DNA from: a virus
Direction: 5' to 3' (one strand)
DNA: 64,000 bases
Virus record (IMG/VR): IMGVR_UViG_3300025534_000213
Location: 65,576-129,575 of that record
Both the position numbers and the translations under genes were made by a program. The notes under the pieces are model-generated. The model made no database searches. It saw only the letters and a list, made by a program, of their open reading frames with translations, and had not been told where the DNA came from. Below, one piece after another: positions 4,577-44,881 of the stretch (its first letter is position 1; every line of letters begins with the position of its first letter).

Positions 4577-5122
4577 ATGCTCACTCGCGCAATTCTCGCG
4601 GCTGCATTGCTCCTCGGGCTCGCGGTCGCTCCGGCCGATGCAGCCAGCATCGTCATCAACGGCCGCACTTACACCGTCTCCGATTCCGACGCGGCTGATC
4701 TGGCTCGTGCGGCGGAGACGAAGCAGACTGCGCAGGCGGTCGAGACCATCGGCGAGTACGCCGAACTGGGACGCACCATCGGCATCGGCGTCGCCACTGC
4801 CGCGAAGGAACTGGGGATTGCCGTCAATGAGTTCGCCAGCACGCCCATCGGCGTCCTTGCGACCGGCATCATCGTCTGGAAACTGATGGGGAAGGCGGTC
4901 GTGGGCGCCCTGTGGCTGCTGATCGCCCTGCCGATTTGGTACATCACGTTCCGCCGGATGGCGATCTTCAAGCGGCGCGTGGAACGGGTGGACGACAAGG
5001 GCCGCAAAATCGTCGAGTACGATTACTATACGCCGTCCGATAACGTCGAGGAAATACGCTTCATGTTCGCCTTTGCTCTGGCGATAATCCTCGGCCTCGG
5101 TCTGATGTTGATGTTTGGCTGA
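4577..5122 (+). CDS. Membrane protein with signal peptide
   Basis: N-terminal signal-like segment plus several TM-like segments. Confidence 0.75.
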   Translation: MLTRAILAAALLLGLAVAPADAASIVINGRTYTVSDSDAADLARAAETKQTAQAVETIGEYAELGRTIGIGVATAAKELGIAVNEFASTPIGVLATGIIVWKLMGKAVVGALWLLIALPIWYITFRRMAIFKRRVERVDDKGRKIVEYDYYTPSDNVEEIRFMFAFALAIILGLGLMLMFG

Positions 5123-5885: not shown

Positions 5886-6010
5886 GCCCTGCGCTCCGAA
5901 GGTGGATGGCGCCCACGGTCGGGTACGATCCGACACCCCCGATTTTAGAGATCGGTCCTCTGCCAGTTGAGGTACGCGGGCGTGAGATGTAGATAACAGG
6001 GGAAAGGCGG

Positions 6011-10368: not shown

Positions 10369-13167
10369 ATGGCCGACACCGAAATTCACATGCAGGCGCT
10401 TTTGAAGGCCGTCAACGACATGAGCGCGTCGTTCAGCCGCTATGCCAAACTGGCGGAGCGCGGCCCGCGCCTGAAAAGCGGTGGGCAGAGCGGGCGCGAT
10501 CTTGCAGCGGCGCGGCTATCCGCCGACCTGTCCCGGATCAGCAAGGGCGCCAAGCTTGTCGAGGACTCGACGGCGCGGCTCACCAGCAAATTCTCCGTGC
10601 TCGCGGGATCGGCCGAAACCCTGAGCCGTAGCTTCGGCGGTATCATCACGAAGGTGCCGCTGCTGGGTGTAGCACTCGCGTCCCTGTACGACGGAGCTAA
10701 CGGGCTAAGCCGCACCTATTCCGAGATGATGGGCCGGGGCCAGTCCTTCGGCGGCTCCATGATCGAAATGGGCCGTCAGGCCGCTGCCTCGGGCCTGTCC
10801 TTGTCTGATTTCGCCGATATGGTGAAAACCCACGGTGCGGTCGTTGCCGCCTTGGGTGGCGCAGCGGGCGACGGCGCCATGCGGCTGGGCCAACTCCAGA
10901 AGGGCGTCCGCGACAACATCCGTGAGTTCGGCTTCCTCGGCTTGTCGCTCCGCGACATCAGTGAACTCTCCGGCGACTACGCCGAGACATTGCGGCGTCA
11001 GGGCGCCGCTGCCGACATGAACGCGGCCAAGGAAGCACGCAATATTGCGCAGTTCTCCGAGGAGATCACGCAATTCGCGGCGATGACCGGCACCAACCGC
11101 AGGCAGATCGCCAAGATGACCATGGACCTCCTGAAAGAGGGGACCATCGCCACGCGTCTCGCCATCAACGGCTCCGAGGATCAGCGTCGCGCCCTCGAAC
11201 GCTCCGTCGCCTTCTTTAGCTCCATGCCCGGTATCGCGGGCGAGATGCTCGGCAAGATGATCGGCCAGAGCTTCGCCAATGGCGGCGCCATCTTTACCGA
11301 GCAGGCGGAGACCTTCATTCAGGCGGGTGCCGGTGGCCTGCTCGGCGTCTTTGACGACATCCGCCGTCAGATCGAGACGGGGGCCGGGGCCAGCATCGAG
11401 GACCTGCAAGCCGCGCTCGACCGCATCCATCAGTTCGACGAGCAGAACCGGGTGTACCTGATGGTGCAGGCGCGCGCGGGCAACAGCAATGCCCAGCAGG
11501 TGCTCGCCATGCTGTCGCAGATGCGCAACATCACGGCCGAGGGTCTCGCCGAACAGATGGAGCGCGCCAAGCAGCAGGGCAAGATCACCTCCATCTTCTC
11601 CAAGCTTGAGGACGCCTTCACCAAGGTGTCGAGCAGCTTCCGCGAGGGTTTCCTTGGTGCATTCGAGGACCTCGTGGAGGGCGATTCCGGCAATGCCCTC
11701 AAGGAGGCCGTCGATAGGATCAGCGAGATCGTGAAAGCCTTGGGCTCGTCGCTCGGCGCATTCTTCGCGGGCATGTTCAAGGGCGATGGTCTGGGGAACA
11801 CCATCAAGACCATCAACGCCGTGGGCAGCGGGATGATTGGCGTGTTCTCGACCCTGAGCACCGTGATCAGTGCCTTGTCCCCGGTGTTTCGTGGCATCAT
11901 CGGGGTGGTCGGCACCGTGGCGACCATCTTCAACCGCCTGACGCAGCATCTCGGGCCTTTCGAGACCGGCCTCGTCGCGCTGGCTTCCTTCTTCGGCGGC
12001 AAAGTCCTGATCACCAAGGTCACGGAAGCCATCAGCAATATGTTCCGCCGCGTCCCGGCAATGAATGTCCACGCGGAGGTCATCAATGTGAACGGCTCCC
12101 GTCTCGGTGGCGGTCCCGACCTGCCTGCGCCCGGCGGCTCCGGTCGGCGGTCGATCCTCCGCCAGCGGGGAGCGGTCGGAAGAGCCGCCCGAAGTCTGGC
12201 GCGGGTGATGCCCCGGACCACGCGGGCGCTGGGCGCGGCAGGCAGCGCGGTATCGCATCTCGGGAGAGGGGCCATCGGGGGCCTTGGCGGCTTGGCCGCC
12301 ATGGGCGGTGGAATGCTTCTCAACCTGCTGCCCGACTTCGCGGGCAAGGGCGCGGCCCAGAGCATGTTGGACTATGGCGGCTTGGGAGCGATGATCGGGT
12401 CCGTCATCCCGGTCATCGGCACGGGCATCGGCGGCGCCATCGGTGCCGCCATTGGCCTCCTCAAGGCAAACTGGGACGAAATCGCGCCGCCCATTGGCGC
12501 CGCTTGGACTGCGCTCGGGACCTTCATCAGCGGCGCGGTGGACACGGTGAAGGGCTGGGCCGCGACGGTCGGCCAGTTCGTCTCCGACTGGAACCCGGTC
12601 AGCCTCGTCACCAACAACTGGTCCTCGATCACGGGTGCCGTTAGCAGCGGGCTCGGGACACTCGGAGGCTGGATCAGCGACGCGATGGACACCGTGACCG
12701 GCTGGGCCACATCCGTCCGTACATGGGCGTTCGACTCCACCCCGATGCAGGCCGTCATCGGCGTCTGGAATACAATCACGGGCGCGCTCGGCAGCTTCTT
12801 CTCCACCTTCAAGGGTTGGATCGACACCGTTGCCGGATGGGTCGGCGGCCTCGTGGAGACGGTCGGCAGCCTCACCGATGGCGTGCGCAACAGCCGCGTC
12901 GGACGCTGGCTCGGGATCGACAGCGGCCCCAGCCCGGCAGTCCCCGCACCGACCGCCCCACCAGCCGCCCCCGTGGCGCCCACCACGGCGCCCGCTGCCG
13001 CAGCCCCGCTGGCAGCGCAGGCGATCCCGAACAACATGCTCGCCAGCTTCCTCGAACAGCAACGCGAGCAGCTTGATCTCATCGCCCGGCTCATGGCGGA
13101 AAACAACCGTCTCGTGCGAGAGGGGAATCGCGTGGCAGTCCGGGCGGCCGACCCCGACCGTTCCTGA
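10369..13167 (+). CDS. Tape-measure-like tail/baseplate protein
   Basis: 932 aa, Ala/Gly-rich helical protein with Trp-spaced repeats and hydrophobic segments, between hub and portal genes. Confidence 0.7.
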   Translation: MADTEIHMQALLKAVNDMSASFSRYAKLAERGPRLKSGGQSGRDLAAARLSADLSRISKGAKLVEDSTARLTSKFSVLAGSAETLSRSFGGIITKVPLLGVALASLYDGANGLSRTYSEMMGRGQSFGGSMIEMGRQAAASGLSLSDFADMVKTHGAVVAALGGAAGDGAMRLGQLQKGVRDNIREFGFLGLSLRDISELSGDYAETLRRQGAAADMNAAKEARNIAQFSEEITQFAAMTGTNRRQIAKMTMDLLKEGTIATRLAINGSEDQRRALERSVAFFSSMPGIAGEMLGKMIGQSFANGGAIFTEQAETFIQAGAGGLLGVFDDIRRQIETGAGASIEDLQAALDRIHQFDEQNRVYLMVQARAGNSNAQQVLAMLSQMRNITAEGLAEQMERAKQQGKITSIFSKLEDAFTKVSSSFREGFLGAFEDLVEGDSGNALKEAVDRISEIVKALGSSLGAFFAGMFKGDGLGNTIKTINAVGSGMIGVFSTLSTVISALSPVFRGIIGVVGTVATIFNRLTQHLGPFETGLVALASFFGGKVLITKVTEAISNMFRRVPAMNVHAEVINVNGSRLGGGPDLPAPGGSGRRSILRQRGAVGRAARSLARVMPRTTRALGAAGSAVSHLGRGAIGGLGGLAAMGGGMLLNLLPDFAGKGAAQSMLDYGGLGAMIGSVIPVIGTGIGGAIGAAIGLLKANWDEIAPPIGAAWTALGTFISGAVDTVKGWAATVGQFVSDWNPVSLVTNNWSSITGAVSSGLGTLGGWISDAMDTVTGWATSVRTWAFDSTPMQAVIGVWNTITGALGSFFSTFKGWIDTVAGWVGGLVETVGSLTDGVRNSRVGRWLGIDSGPSPAVPAPTAPPAAPVAPTTAPAAAAPLAAQAIPNNMLASFLEQQREQLDLIARLMAENNRLVREGNRVAVRAADPDRS

Positions 13168-19626: not shown

Positions 19627-20826
19627 ATGACGAAGCTTTTCGAGTCCCAGTGGCAGGCCACCAAGAAGGCCCTCTGCGAGGGTCGTGACCTGACCCACAA
19701 CTTCGACGGTTCTCCGAACCCCAACAAGAAGAAGATGATGGAGACCGTCCTTGAGAACACCCGCCGCGAGATGAAGCTGATGGAGGCTGCCACCGCTGGT
19801 GCGACCAACGCTGCCAACGTCGCGACGCTGAACAAGGTGATTCTCCCGGTCATCCGCCGCGTGATGCCGACCGTGATCGCCAACGAGATCATCGGCGTGC
19901 AGCCGATGACCGGCCCCGTCGCCCAGATTCACACTCTGCGCGTCCGCTACGCCGACACCTACGCTGGCGTGACCGCCGGTTCCGAGGCCCTGAGCCCGTT
20001 CGACATCGCCCGCGCCTACTCCGGCAACGGCAATGCCAACACCCCGAAGGCCGCCGCGACCTCCGCACTGGAAGGCGTCGCCGGTAACCGGATCAGCATC
20101 CAAATCCTCAAGGAAGTGGTCGAGGCCAAGACCCGCAAGCTGTCCGCTCGCTGGACCTTCGAGGCCGCTCAGGACGCGCAGGCGCAGCAGGGTATCGACA
20201 TCGAGGCCGAGATCATGGCTGCTCTGGCACAGGAGATCACCGCCGAGATCGATCAGGAGATTCTCGTCTCCCTGCGTGCTCTACCGGGCGCTCCGACCCT
20301 GACCTTCGACATGAACAACGTGACCGGCACCCCGACCTTCGTCGGCGATGTCCACGCTGCTCTGGCGATCCTGATCAACCGTCAGGCCAACCTGATCGCC
20401 GCCCGTACCCGCCGGGGCGCTGGTAACTGGTGCGTTGTTTCCCCGACCGCTCTGACCATTCTCCAGAGCGCGACGACTTCCGCGTTCGCCCGCACCACCG
20501 AGGGTGTGTTCGAGGCGCCCACGAACACCAAGTACGTCGGCACCCTGAACAACTCCATGCGCGTGTACGTTGACCAGTACGCGTCTGACCAGACCCCGGT
20601 GCTGGTGGGGTACAAGGGCAATGAGATGGACGCCGCTGCGTTCTACTGCCCGTACGTGCCGCTGACCTCCTCCGGCGTGCTGATCGACCCGAACACCATG
20701 GAGCCGGTCGTGTCCTTCATGACCCGCTATGGCTACGTCGAACTCACCAACAGCGCGTCCTCGCTGGGCAATGCGGCGGATTACTTGGGGCTCGTTGGTG
20801 TGGCTTCCAACGTGTCTTTCATGTAA
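19627..20826 (+). CDS. gp23: Major capsid protein (T4 gp23-like)
   Basis: VIRRVMPTVIANEIIGVQPMTGP, KTRKLSARWT, EITAEIDQEI, FYCPYVPL, FMTRYG. Confidence 0.97.
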   Translation: MTKLFESQWQATKKALCEGRDLTHNFDGSPNPNKKKMMETVLENTRREMKLMEAATAGATNAANVATLNKVILPVIRRVMPTVIANEIIGVQPMTGPVAQIHTLRVRYADTYAGVTAGSEALSPFDIARAYSGNGNANTPKAAATSALEGVAGNRISIQILKEVVEAKTRKLSARWTFEAAQDAQAQQGIDIEAEIMAALAQEITAEIDQEILVSLRALPGAPTLTFDMNNVTGTPTFVGDVHAALAILINRQANLIAARTRRGAGNWCVVSPTALTILQSATTSAFARTTEGVFEAPTNTKYVGTLNNSMRVYVDQYASDQTPVLVGYKGNEMDAAAFYCPYVPLTSSGVLIDPNTMEPVVSFMTRYGYVELTNSASSLGNAADYLGLVGVASNVSFM

Positions 20827-20840
20827 TCCACGAATACTGG

Positions 20841-20874
20841 AAAAGGGCGGATGCTTCGGCATCCGCCCTTTTTT
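20841..20874 (+). terminator. Rho-independent terminator after the capsid gene
   Basis: GGGCGGATGC-TTCG-GCATCCGCCC followed by T6. Confidence 0.9.
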
Positions 20875-20927
20875 GTTGCAATATCCGCACACGGTGTTAT
20901 ACAGCGTATCCGCGAAAGGATACCGCC

Positions 20928-31334: not shown

Positions 31335-31408
31335 TGGACACAGGTGGACTCGAACCACCGACATGCGGTGTGTAAGACCGCTGTTCTACCGGGCTGAACT
31401 ATGTGTCC
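31335..31408 (-). tRNA. tRNA-Val(TAC), CCA not encoded directly
   Basis: Cloverleaf; after A73 the gene reads TACCA. Confidence 0.9.
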
Positions 31409-40256: not shown

Positions 40257-40303
40257 GCTTGATCTCGTCGAGGGAGGCGGCCATACGCCGCCTCCCTCAT
40301 CGT

Positions 40304-40921
40304 TCAGGCCATCAGGGGCAGATCGCCGACGAAGGGGCGCAGGTCATCCTTGCGCCCGAAGATGTAGGCGCAGGTGTCGAGCGGAATGGTGGCGGGCTTG
40401 GGGTTACGCTGCCGCTCGATGTCCCCCTGCGCCACGACGGCGAGGATGATGGCGTGAAACAGCCAGCCGAGAACCCCGGAGACAAGGGCGAAATCCAGAT
40501 AACCGAACACCGCATAGCCGAAGGCGAGGAGGAAGAAGTACCCCACCAGCGATAGGCCATGGTCCTTCCGGGGCGGCGTCGCCAGCGGATAGGAAGGGTC
40601 ATGGGTGATGCCCGCGTGGTGTCCGGCAGCACGGGCCTCGGCCACGCGGGTGCGCATCTGGGCCTCGGTGACGCTCAGCACGACACAGGTGCCGAAGCCA
40701 CGACCGGTCTCGCTCTCCCACTCGTTGATCATCGCTTCGAGCGCCAGCGCCCGGTCACGAACCGCCTTGTCCTCGTGCAGCGCATTCTCGGCCACCCAAG
40801 CCCGGCCCTCGGCGATGCACTGGTTGGCGGCATGGCTTCCCTGCGCAACCGCCTTTCCCGGATTCATGTCCGGGCGGTCGGCGCGCATCAGGATGTAAAG
40901 GTATACGGGAGAATCGGGCAT
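40304..40921 (-). CDS. Pth2-like peptidyl-tRNA hydrolase with inserted TM hairpin
   Basis: YILMRAD..MNPGKAVAQGSHAA, HDPSYP, DTCAYIFG. Confidence 0.75.
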   Translation of the reverse strand: MPDSPVYLYILMRADRPDMNPGKAVAQGSHAANQCIAEGRAWVAENALHEDKAVRDRALALEAMINEWESETGRGFGTCVVLSVTEAQMRTRVAEARAAGHHAGITHDPSYPLATPPRKDHGLSLVGYFFLLAFGYAVFGYLDFALVSGVLGWLFHAIILAVVAQGDIERQRNPKPATIPLDTCAYIFGRKDDLRPFVGDLPLMA

Positions 40922-42038: not shown

Positions 42039-42186
42039 CGTTCTCACCGGTTAAAACCGTTGGCCGGAACGGCAAATGCCCGGTCGGCGCCAGATGGCGA
42101 AACGCATGGTTGGTCTGTCACCGGAAGATCGTATACCGGCGGTCCTGCCGAGCCGCCGAGGTCGGTGTATTTTTCGAGAGACTTGC

Positions 42187-42441
42187 ATGATCCGCAATGC
42201 ATTCTTCAAGACCGGTGCATGTGCCGCGCTGGTCCTGTCCCTGACCACCTGTGATCCTTACAATCCCGCATCGCGCGCCGTGGGCGGCGGGCTCCTCGGC
42301 GGTGCTGCCGGTGCCGGGATTTCCGGTATCGCGGGTGGGGACCCGGCGACGGGGGCGCTGCTGGGGGCTGGTGTCGGTGTCCTCGGCGGCGCCCTCTCGA
42401 CGCCGGAGCGTCCCCGGCCACATGGCCGCCACTGGCGCTAA
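42187..42441 (+). CDS. Glycine-zipper lipoprotein
   Basis: Lipobox LTTC followed by GxxxG repeats. Confidence 0.75.
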   Translation: MIRNAFFKTGACAALVLSLTTCDPYNPASRAVGGGLLGGAAGAGISGIAGGDPATGALLGAGVGVLGGALSTPERPRPHGRHWR

Positions 42442-42456
42442 CAGGTCCACGCGCGC

Positions 42457-42490
42457 AAGGCCCGGTGGAGGCTCCCCACCGGGCCTTTTC
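42457..42490 (+). terminator. Rho-independent terminator
   Basis: AAGGCCCGGTGG/CCACCGGGCCTT stem plus T tail. Confidence 0.75.
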
Positions 42491-42511
42491 ATGCCGGGTT
42501 TTCCGAGCGGA

Positions 42512-42712
42512 TCAGGCCAGTCGGTTCCGACGGATGGCAATGGCCGTGCCAGCCAGTCCGATGAGGCCGATGGCGGCAAGAAGCGCCGTTGCGACGATGA
42601 CCTGCCAGTCACCCACATGAAGGGCATACCCGAAGGCAGGCAGCGTCAGGAAATTGACGGCGGAGTATTTCCGGACCGGCGAAAGGGCTCGTCGTATCCG
42701 GGATGGTGTCAC
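42512..42712 (-). CDS. Small membrane protein
   Basis: Two hydrophobic segments; GTGA-coupled. Confidence 0.55.
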   Translation of the reverse strand: MTPSRIRRALSPVRKYSAVNFLTLPAFGYALHVGDWQVIVATALLAAIGLIGLAGTAIAIRRNRLA

Positions 42713-42930
42713 CAACGCATCTCCTGCCCACGGGTCCAGACCATGACGTTGAAGCCCAGCACCGGCAGGCCGAGCAGGAGACCGGGCGCAAGAGCGATGG
42801 CGACCGCATCGGGCACCGGCTGGGTTGCCATGACGAAGATCAGATACCCGAGGAACAGGAGGAGTGCGCCTCCGATGACCCGGACCAAGTACAGTTCGAT
42901 GGGCATCAGGCGTCGGCCGCGTCGTGGCAT
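42709..42930 (-). CDS. Small membrane protein
   Basis: Two hydrophobic segments; GAGAGG RBS. Confidence 0.65.
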   Translation of the reverse strand: MPRRGRRLMPIELYLVRVIGGALLLFLGYLIFVMATQPVPDAVAIALAPGLLLGLPVLGFNVMVWTRGQEMRW

Positions 42931-43019
42931 GTTGGAATCCTCTCGTGTCTCTCAGGACCATACTGCGTAAACACGGTGATTCAACCAAATTAATTCGGTC
43001 AAGATGGACTGGTGGTGAC

Positions 43020-43722
43020 GGGCTCCGTGAGGCTCGCTTCGCTCACCTCACGGGCGTGCCTGCGGCTCGCTTCGCTACGCCTTGGCACGGCTTTGCCAAG
43101 GACCGTTCAGTCGATCAGGCAGGATGATGATCTTTCTCTCCCTCGGTCACGCACAGTTTCTCCCCCTGCTCCACCGGGGAGCCACCCAGAGGGCGGCCGG
43201 ACGATGGAGCAAGGAGGAGAAATCAACGCGTCACGCGATGACCGCATCGCCGCGAGCCGGGTTTACCCCGGCAGCAGGTGGTATCCGAACCCTGCATATA
43301 ACAGCGTCTCCCGAACCCGATCCCGCCTACGGCCGCCCTTGGGGCCGGATGGCGCGTGTGGGTTCGTGCCCGGCCTAGGCCGGGGGAATCGTTGCCCTTT
43401 TTCACGCGCCGGGCTTGCTGGGCCAGCGGATCGTCGATGGTTCATACGGTTATCGCCCCTTGCGAGGGGCGAAGCACACCCGACCGGCAAGCGATAGACC
43501 GGCCGGATGCAGCGGGTTGACAAACAGTCAGTCAGAGCCCGCATCTTGCGGTGCCTTTCGCGGCCTGAGAGCCGCCGGGAGCCGACCACGAAGGGCCGCC
43601 CTGCCTGTCCAGCTACAGCTTGCTGTCCGGTCTGCGGCCGACTGGATACGGCCTCACTCCCGGCATCGCTTCTGGGGCGGCGGTGACCCCGATGATGACC
43701 GCCTGCTGGTATGTGATAATCG
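43020..43722 (-). ncRNA. Candidate large structured non-coding element (about 700 nt); strand inferred
   Basis: No credible CDS; many perfect hairpins; same orientation as flanking genes. Confidence 0.5.
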
Positions 43723-43724
43723 AT

Positions 43725-44789
43725 TTATACCGTAGCCGTCTCCTTCTCGGCGCCAGCCAGCCGGTTGGGCACCAGCACCTTCTTCCATCCATGCTGCACG
43801 GTCCGCACGTGATCCTTGCGGACATACTTGCCGACGCAGTGCCGGAACTGCCCATAGGGGAACTCGTCCGCGATGCGCAGCACATAGCCTTCACATCGCT
43901 CCCAGTCCCGCTTCGGGTCGTAGAGCTTGCGAATGGCCGCCTCGTCGTAGATGCCATCATAGATCACCTTGACGGGCGTGATGCCCAGCAGGGCGAACCA
44001 CGTCAGCGTCTCGTCCCATGACAGGCAGACGTTGCGGTCGTTCCAGACCGAGAAGCCGAGGAAATAGCTAGGCAGGTCGTCATAGGCGATGGAGTGCTTG
44101 GCGTAGAGGTTCTCGCCGCACACCCGCCAGCCCTCGGGGATGTCATGTCCGATCTCGGAGCGGAACTGCTTGACCCAATCGCGCTCCGGGCCGCCGCGCG
44201 AATCAAGGCTGCGCGCGTGCATCCCATCCCGGTAGAAGGTGGTGTTCTCGCCATCCATCTTGATCGTGGCGATGACCCGCCTGCCCTCGAACGCCGCCAT
44301 GGAGGCGAGCATCCGGTCGTCATCGTTCATGCCGTCGGACCACGGCAGATGGTAGGTGCGGGGGTACTTCACCCGGTCGGTGAACAGGTGCAGCACGCCG
44401 CCCTGACCGAGCACCTTCTGCACGCTCTCGTCCCAGAACAACTCGCCGCGCAGGCGGTTGCCATTGGGGAGGATCGGGTTGCCCCACTTGTCGTAGGTCT
44501 GGTCCTCATAGAGGTGTTCCGGCAGGATCGGCTTGGTGATGCCGCAGGCAAGCCGGACCTCCTCGACCGACAACACGGTCTGTTCGCAGAGCATGTGATG
44601 CTCCTCGCAGACCGACGCCCCGTTGTCGAGGTAGTAGCCGCCATCCGACCACAGCCTCCGCTCAAGGATATGATGGGCGTCCTTGGCGGGCGCGCCGCAG
44701 AACACGCAGCGGTGCTTGTCGCGTGCGAAAACCCCGTCGCGGAACGCATCCCGCGTGAGGAGCGTGCGACCGTCTGGCGTCGTGACCAT
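43725..44789 (-). CDS. HNH-domain / RNA ligase fusion protein
   Basis: N-terminal RD.HRCVFC...DAHHI...NGASVC..HH; ligase motif I KMDGEN, GENL, FSVW, EGYVLR, KYVR. Confidence 0.85.
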   Translation of the reverse strand: MVTTPDGRTLLTRDAFRDGVFARDKHRCVFCGAPAKDAHHILERRLWSDGGYYLDNGASVCEEHHMLCEQTVLSVEEVRLACGITKPILPEHLYEDQTYDKWGNPILPNGNRLRGELFWDESVQKVLGQGGVLHLFTDRVKYPRTYHLPWSDGMNDDDRMLASMAAFEGRRVIATIKMDGENTTFYRDGMHARSLDSRGGPERDWVKQFRSEIGHDIPEGWRVCGENLYAKHSIAYDDLPSYFLGFSVWNDRNVCLSWDETLTWFALLGITPVKVIYDGIYDEAAIRKLYDPKRDWERCEGYVLRIADEFPYGQFRHCVGKYVRKDHVRTVQHGWKKVLVPNRLAGAEKETATV

Positions 44790-44881
44790 GGCAGACCTCC
44801 TCCTAAGGGGTTGAATACGGTTCCGGTAAACCAGATAATGTCGTTCTTTATGGGAAGGGCCGCCTGAAGTCAAGCGTTGCG

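Follow-up and report, generated by a model that had tools for sequence, protein, structure and literature searches.

Layout of the locus

The stretch of DNA analysed here, called the window in what follows, is 64,000 nt long and corresponds to bases 65576-129575 of a 191-kb IMG/VR record with a GC content of 63% and an estimated completeness of 38%. The record belongs to a T4-like phage, its portal protein matching phrog_213 with an E value of 1e-102. Within the window an RNA ligase gene and a gene for a 73-aa protein are separated by a gene-free gap of 794 nt (42931-43724), counted from the stop codon of the ligase to the ATG of the smaller gene, and all genes around this gap lie on the minus strand (Table 1). 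An AGGAGG ribosome site precedes the ligase gene, and an identical ligase protein is also encoded on a 484-kb contig. Outside this phage the best match to the ligase among 5.8 billion proteins is 73% identical, and the ligase is widespread and mobile. The 73-aa protein found only itself among the same 5.8 billion proteins; its 116-aa neighbour was without relatives in the protein search and is likewise an orphan. Beside the 73-aa gene, the public annotation of 42076-42708 has a 66-aa gene and, on the opposite strand, an 84-aa Gly-zipper protein rather than a 169-aa ORF; the GC content reaches up to 78% at 42270-42450, and a strain variant carries a 1-nt deletion at 42499.

Both ends of the gap carry candidate signals. 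Judged by their sequence, the last ~60 nt supply the 73-aa gene with a ribosome site and an early promoter of the ordinary kind, and the 19-nt stretch spanning its UP-like element and -35 box has at least two identical copies elsewhere in the genome. Early promoters of this phage share ACCGAATTA..GGTTGAC, a 17-nt spacer and TAnnnT. Many gene starts have no Shine-Dalgarno sequence; instead, a CATTTCAGAA-like motif immediately precedes the start codon (for example at window positions 4577, 40921, 48607, 55045 and 57139), which may be an unusual translation start signal. At the opposite end of the gap, the TATAAAT box over the ligase stop codon is a possible start signal for a gap transcript, to go by its sequence. 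About 50 nt around this box align to the head of the second tRNA operon of the phage with a local score of 29, which 2 of 400 shuffles reach. The box reads TAAATC, whereas the late motif of the phage is TAAATA, and gene starts show no enrichment of TAAATC variants ahead of them. The late-promoter-like core TAAATA itself occurs 48 times in 191 kb, 27 times within 80 nt upstream of a gene start on the same strand (for example upstream of window positions 10369, 13249, 16697, 21484 and 25795).

The second tRNA operon (Trp, four Ser, Tyr, Arg) lies on the minus strand at G000:C1:170413-171300, outside the window (window coordinates ~104838-105725). It begins ~165 nt behind a TACGGTATAAATA box, and between this box and the first tRNA there is a terminator-like hairpin with a T-run, so that a small RNA of ~150 nt may be encoded there. 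A further tRNA, with the anticodon CUA that reads the amber stop codon, is found at window positions 5907-5981 on the minus strand. One more partial likeness to the head of the gap, a match of 21 out of 22 nt between 43688-43709 and a site at 187.5 kb of the genome, was taken as coincidence because the surroundings of that site look coding and the TATAAAT box is missing there.

A terminator scan of 42931-43724 detected no canonical intrinsic terminator, that is no hairpin with a U-run, on either strand. Since the gap has no terminator-like site, read-through from the ligase gene is to be expected. Other intergenic hairpins of this phage are also without U-runs.

Table 1. Genes, signals, hairpins and repeats in and around the gap (window coordinates)
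Feature	Position	Strand	Remarks
RNA ligase gene, 354 aa	43725-44789	minus	PF09414, E 7.6e-30; product P0002
Ligase promoter, sigma-70-type	TTGACT 44868-44873; TAAAGA 44845-44850	minus	read from the upstream sequence
TATAAAT box	43722-43729	minus	over the ligase stop codon; only TATAAAT in the window
12-bp hairpin, three G.U pairs	43476-43510	minus	pair probabilities of 0.8 or higher in two sequence contexts
8-bp hairpin, 4-nt loop	43453-43472		perfect inverted repeat; robust in both contexts
16-nt palindrome CCCGGCCTAGGCCGGG	43369-43384		
Compound hairpin, ~16 bp in three helices	43312-43366		robust in both contexts
Two 6-bp hairpins	43235-43250 and 43256-43272		
Long hairpin, 36 bp, small internal loops	43146-43234	minus	five G.U pairs, no A.C mismatch; 5' arm pyrimidine-rich (contains CCUCC), 3' arm purine-rich (GGGGGAG)
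8-bp hairpin CCTTGGCA/TGCCAAGG	43080-43101		
13-nt direct repeat GGCTCGCTTCGCT, two copies	43031-43043 and 43064-43076	minus	33 nt apart; sequence given as on the plus strand
Early promoter and ribosome site of 73-aa gene	42938-43000	minus	built like the genome's other early promoters
Parts of this promoter	-35 TTGAAT 42979-42984; -10 TATGGT 42957-42962	minus	UP-like ACCGAATTAATTTGG; 16-nt spacer
SD GAGAGGA of 73-aa gene	42938-42944	minus	ahead of the ATG
73-aa orphan gene	42709-42930	minus	coding by GC3 and codon usage

Coding status and strain variation

The gap shows no GC3 periodicity; both flanking genes are strongly periodic. All gap ORFs of at least 25 aa score between -0.17 and -0.72 per codon in codon usage, where small real genes score 0.31 +/- 0.22. 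Windows of 40 codons in all six frames of the gap reach at most 0.16, against 0.46-0.86 for the flanking genes. In two further assemblies of this phage (L031 and L032) the public annotation has no gene in the gap, and a Pfam search of the gap ORFs gave no match. By GC3, codon usage and public gene calls, 42931-43724 is non-coding. A reading of the window made earlier from the letters and ORFs only (the sequence-only reading) had named a coding signal in one frame as an observation that would speak against a non-coding tract downstream of the ligase; no frame shows such a signal, and the tract is real, at 794 nt slightly longer than the ~700 nt it had been given. Its description as the largest gene-free tract holds in part: the gap is the longest stretch without any recognised gene, but longer stretches that score as non-coding do exist in the 191-kb record. 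These are tRNA clusters or the CRISPR array, and one gene for a repeat protein is likewise scored as non-coding.

The gap is present in other assemblies as well, all of which match the window at 99.9% identity or more. Among near-identical strains in public sequencing runs we counted 2 differences in 317 nt of the gap versus 4-5 in 317-343 nt of the flanks; strain variation in the gap is no higher than in the flanks. The two variant sites within the gap are 43331 and 43418. On the minus strand, the variant at 43331 would turn a G-C pair of the predicted compound hairpin at 43312-43366 into G.U, and the variant at 43418, within a weak 4-bp predicted hairpin, would give C.A.

Predicted folding of the gap

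Folded as a whole, the gap reaches a z score of -4.4 on the minus and -3.3 on the plus strand (20 shuffles per strand). The excess of structure is confined to 43000-43340 of the minus strand, just ahead of the promoter of the 73-aa gene: this part has a z score of -4.6 and none of 100 shuffles folds as well, whereas 43330-43724 of the same strand has a z score of -1.8 and is equalled by 9 of 100 shuffles. The earlier description of the tract as hairpin-dense is thus correct for 43000-43340 on the minus strand, which is structured beyond chance, but not for the other 390 nt, which fold no better than shuffles. The gap has five perfect stems of at least 6 bp, where the genome averages 2.2 per 794 nt, and so lies in the top 7% of windows; short perfect hairpins are mildly enriched, not extremely so.

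The structured part is dominated by the 36-bp hairpin. Its segment (43146-43234) has a folding energy of -63.2 kcal/mol and a z score of -6.83 against shuffles on the minus strand, compared with -48.2 kcal/mol and -4.07 on the plus strand, and its predicted pair probabilities are mostly at least 0.8. For the 12-bp hairpin (43476-43510) the values are -24.8 kcal/mol and z -3.65 on the minus versus -15.6 kcal/mol and z -1.99 on the plus strand, and for the compound hairpin the z scores are -2.7 and -2.5, respectively. Of the four hairpin elements, 43146-43234, 43470-43515 and 43020-43105 are much more stably folded on the minus than on the plus strand, and 43308-43370 is symmetric. About eight local hairpins are robust, whereas the long-range helices shift with the sequence context that is supplied to the folding program.

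We also placed the gap against the rest of the genome, regressing the energy of every 200-nt window on GC. Within the gap only 43026-43325 of the minus strand stands out: its 200-nt windows have z scores from -3.0 to -3.8 and are the second-best placed in the record, while the plus strand of the same region reaches only -0.8 to -1.5. At a window size of 100 nt, 43139-43238 of the minus strand has the lowest GC-corrected energy in the 191-kb record (z -5.17), level with 20776-20875 on the plus strand. Other top-ranked windows lie between genes or at gene ends as well, for example 40259-40358 and again 20776-20875. Over 200 nt the strand difference of folding belongs to the top 2.6% of windows, a bias towards the minus strand that is suggestive and not extreme.

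All six helices and repeats that the sequence-only reading had named were found where it had placed them, and the two copies of the 13-nt repeat do sit in hairpin loops on the minus strand, the first in a 9-bp hairpin (43025-43053) and the second in a weaker one. The 13-mer is found nowhere else in the genome. Each copy contains GCGAAGC, which forms a very stable DNA mini-hairpin and is present at some primase sites (PMC13037366).

Search for related sequences

At gathering thresholds, Rfam assigned no family to the gap in a search of the whole window, and with E values up to 10 the segment 42850-43850 gave only chance-level matches such as microRNA hairpin models. ARAGORN at default settings reported neither tRNA nor tmRNA in the gap, and its output at lowered thresholds was noise-like. 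Neither BLAST nor a covariance model revealed a second copy of the gap in its own genome. No match to the gap was found in public phage DNA or, by BLAST, in nine related phage records; a covariance model built on the main hairpin domain (R1) had no hit in these nine plus 46 further related records (55 in all). The purine/pyrimidine pattern of the hairpin arms had no match in viral or metagenome contigs.

The ligase locus itself was compared across 29 IMG/VR loci, six loci of portal relatives and five contexts from a large protein collection. Blastn and nhmmer at these ligase loci showed no similar tract, and tblastx over the loci fetched by then gave nothing. Nearly all relatives' loci examined have genes directly after the ligase, so the suggestion in the sequence-only reading that similar tracts occur in other T4-like jumbo phages found no counterpart at this locus in the relatives checked. 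The portal relatives, with records of 150-608 kb, share 58-71% portal identity, the closest ~70%. The neighbour genes of the ligase are not common to the relatives, with the exception of the closest one (G008, the nearest relative by portal identity), which has the same block in a different gene order. In a high-GC giant phage whose ligase is 70% identical, an HNH homing endonuclease gene directly follows the ligase, which shows that the position flanking the ligase takes up mobile DNA. A related 608-kb phage carries a ligase homologue with one in-frame TGA (G009:C1:99778-100794). By these comparisons the tract and its neighbours appear to be lineage-specific.

Matches to the pair of 13-mers in more than 120 metagenome contigs and 10 viral contigs were rejected as homologues: they are unrelated tandem arrays without the hairpin context. 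The arrays share a 16-nt core GCGAGCGAAGCGAGCC, and the three bases before the 13-mer are 74-81% conserved. The complementarity of their flanks is no higher than in shuffled pairings, and nothing else in them aligns to the gap. The arrays with this core (metagenome L108-L227, viral L228-L237) come from many different metagenome records, including giant-virus bins, and have otherwise unrelated unit sequences; GCGA units may have multiplied in them in the manner of a microsatellite, or the site may be truly shared.

The DNA sequencing runs X2-X4 contained only fragments of near-identical strains. A first search of sequencing runs turned up no RNA run with the gap; in a second, two soil metatranscriptome runs shared 4-5 of 74 sampled words with 42990-43724, which counts as no evidence for transcription. 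Five candidate host genomes, reached via the CRISPR repeat of the phage, had no significant BLAST match to the gap. The CRISPR array lies at G000:C1:12048-12640, ~53 kb upstream of the first base of the window, and consists of 10 copies of the 29-nt repeat GTGTTCCCCGCGCGTGCGGGGATGAACCG with a period of 61 nt; we take this repeat to be type I-E-like. It is identical in arrays of metagenome-assembled genomes of Rhodospirillaceae, Azospirillaceae, Gemmatimonadales, Desulfovibrionaceae and others, and the repeat alone does not pin down the host, which is presumably a Rhodospirillales-like bacterium of activated sludge.

Discussion

In this study we describe a long non-coding tract behind the RNA ligase gene of an uncultivated giant phage, and the question is what such a tract might be for. 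The explanation that we prefer, at a probability of roughly 40%, is that the gap is a lineage-specific, transcribed non-coding spacer with hairpins that affect the ligase transcript in cis and with a promoter behind them that restarts transcription, the whole being set in a variable block of a T4-like giant phage that is rich in orphan genes. In such a spacer, the early ligase transcript would begin at its own sigma-70-type promoter and, lacking a canonical terminator, run into the gap on the minus strand. It would first pass ~390 nt of unremarkable sequence and then a 340-nt cluster of stable stem-loops dominated by the 36-bp hairpin. Acting in cis, the stem-loops might pause or end transcription without a U-tract; alternatively they might provide a double-stranded cutting site and a protected 3' end. 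Directly behind them, transcription of the 73-aa gene would start anew from the ordinary early promoter. We only infer that the ligase transcript is ended or processed at the hairpins, and likewise which enzyme might take part.

Several observations support this explanation. The ligase and the 73-aa gene each have their own sigma-70-type promoter and ribosome site, and the 36-bp hairpin between them shares first place in stability among the 100-nt windows of the genome. With the variant at 43331, the pair is retained as G.U on the minus strand. Furthermore, the tract and its neighbours are lineage-specific: in the relatives checked the ligase is directly followed by genes, and the 73-aa and 116-aa genes are orphans. 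Other observations weaken it: ~700 nt far exceeds what a terminator and a promoter need and leaves the first 390 nt without an assigned role, the other long non-coding stretches of the genome are mostly RNA genes, which favours an RNA gene here as well, and the strand bias of folding lies only within the top 2.6% of windows.

Known systems offer partial models for hairpins that act in this way. The RNase III sites of the T7 early mRNA are intercistronic double-stranded processing hairpins with a characteristic internal loop. Like them, the gap has a long near-perfect duplex on the transcribed strand between two early genes, and its predicted 36 bp on the minus strand exceed the ~20 bp or more of an RNase III-type site; the T7 sites are, however, shorter. 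Intrinsic terminators without a U-tract (‘I-shaped’ terminators) have been described for high-GC bacteria. The gap resembles these in having GC-rich stem-loops without a U-run at the end of a transcription unit in a genome of 63% GC, but it differs in having eight or more predicted hairpins in series and not one.

A third comparison is with the PeSL cassettes of T4-like phages, in which a terminator stem-loop and an early promoter stand at the borders of variable genes (PMC2839356, PMC4122927). As in these, a stem-loop (43025-43053) lies in the gap ~30 nt ahead of an early promoter (42957-43000), in an orphan-rich variable block of a T4-like phage, and the UP/-35 stretch of that promoter is repeated in the genome. 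In contrast to PeSL, only the 19-nt promoter stretch is repeated and not the stem-loop or the cassette as a whole, and PeSL measure tens of nucleotides while the tract has 700. At 11 early-promoter-like sites of the genome the upstream structure is no stronger than at random places (p 0.29). Since strong hairpins do not as a rule stand ahead of the early promoters of this phage, and since the stem-loop of the gap is not repeated, a recurrent cassette of the PeSL type is not supported.

A serious rival, somewhat less probable than the spacer, is that the minus strand of the tract carries an orphan gene for a structured non-coding RNA of ~330 nt (43006-43338) to ~700 nt, whose fold would let it work in trans and which would arise from the TATAAAT box or be cut from ligase read-through. 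Such a gene would so far be found only in this one giant phage; speculatively, binding of ribosomes or mRNAs by its exposed CCUCC and GGGGGAG arms would be one role. The gap is the longest non-coding stretch of the genome that has no recognised gene, most others being tRNA genes or the CRISPR array, and it is much longer than signals in cis would need. The strength of folding at 43000-43340 and the genome-wide rank of 43026-43325 would suit an RNA gene, as would the preference of folding for the minus strand, the likeness of the head of the gap to the head of the tRNA operon, with its TATAAAT box, and the preservation of the pair at 43331. The variant at 43418, on the other hand, would break a predicted, if weak, pair on the minus strand, the 5' half of the tract is not structured beyond chance, and only local hairpins are robust, the long-range helices depending on context. 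In addition, there is no terminator in the gap, and the box at its head is of the TAAATC variant and not the late TAAATA. Nor does the tract match an Rfam family, recur as a paralogue in its own genome or have a homologue in the 55 related phage records. Because nothing like it was seen in any other sequence searched, the tract cannot be called a new RNA gene yet.

The sequence-only reading had compared the tract in concept to the large ornate RNAs GOLLD (RF01998) and ROOL (RF03087). There is a general likeness, in that several hundred nucleotides of phage DNA are free of genes, show many predicted stem-loops and lack a coding signal. However, the gap matches neither Rfam model even at E values up to 10, it does not adjoin tRNA genes, as those RNAs frequently do in phages or prophages (the nearest in the window ends at 31408, ~11.5 kb away), it has no homologue in relatives, while those families are conserved across many genomes and show covariation in a fold of several domains, and only ~340 nt of it are structured beyond chance. 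A large ornate RNA of the GOLLD/ROOL kind has therefore little support from the evidence that can be tested.

Could the tract simply be leftover DNA without function, the remnant of a lost or foreign gene or a recombination joint, in which, the promoter at its end excepted, the hairpins are incidental? We regard this as unlikely. A hairpin with a z score of -6.8, tied for the top of a 191-kb genome, is hardly incidental, strain variation in the gap is not raised over that in the flanks, and there is no decayed frame to be seen: no window has gene-like codon usage and tblastx against all fetched loci was empty. Such an origin would nevertheless agree with a lineage-specific block flanked by orphans, with the homing endonuclease that follows the 70% identical ligase of the high-GC giant phage, and with a 5' half that folds like its shuffles and a density of short hairpins that is only in the top 7%.

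Very improbable is an element acting at the level of DNA, a replication origin or single-strand initiation site with GCGAAGC repeats on hairpin tips whose copies a primase or initiator would recognise: cumulative GC skew, a check that had been suggested for this idea, does not turn at the gap, the repeats are short and number only two, GCGAAGC is common in the genome (86 copies, 78 of them inside genes), the AT-richer segment at 42940-43010 that adjoins the repeats is explained by the ordinary early promoter, and the matches to the 13-mer pair in more than 120 metagenome contigs are unrelated tandem arrays that lack the hairpin context. What had made the idea attractive are the two 13-nt direct repeats 33 nt apart, unique in the genome, and the mini-hairpins of the GCGNAGC type known at the primase start sites of phage G4 and near the ssiA site of RSF1010 (PMC13037366). 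The gap does share with T4 oriF/oriG and the complementary-strand origin of G4 a non-coding region with a promoter and hairpins, and with G4-type primase sites the mini-hairpin motif; unlike these origins it shows no skew signal and no repeated initiator sites other than the two copies, and the motif is spread over the genome. A replication origin is unlikely.

Large non-coding RNAs whose function is unknown are being found in more and more giant phages, and the places to search for them are gene-free tracts. The tract behind the ligase gene illustrates the limits of this approach: although its non-coding nature is real and no hairpin of the genome is stronger than the one it holds, it belongs to a single lineage. 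Because it is confined to one phage lineage, comparison of sequences cannot decide whether it is an RNA gene; as far as its sequence goes, no known RNA family appears to fit it and no new family is shown either. If RNA data were to show a discrete product, the tract would be an orphan large phage RNA worth study, and if not, it would be one more regulatory spacer in the variable regions of T4-like phages. As it stands, we would tentatively read it as a regulatory spacer that belongs to a variable region and contains a single unusually strong hairpin.
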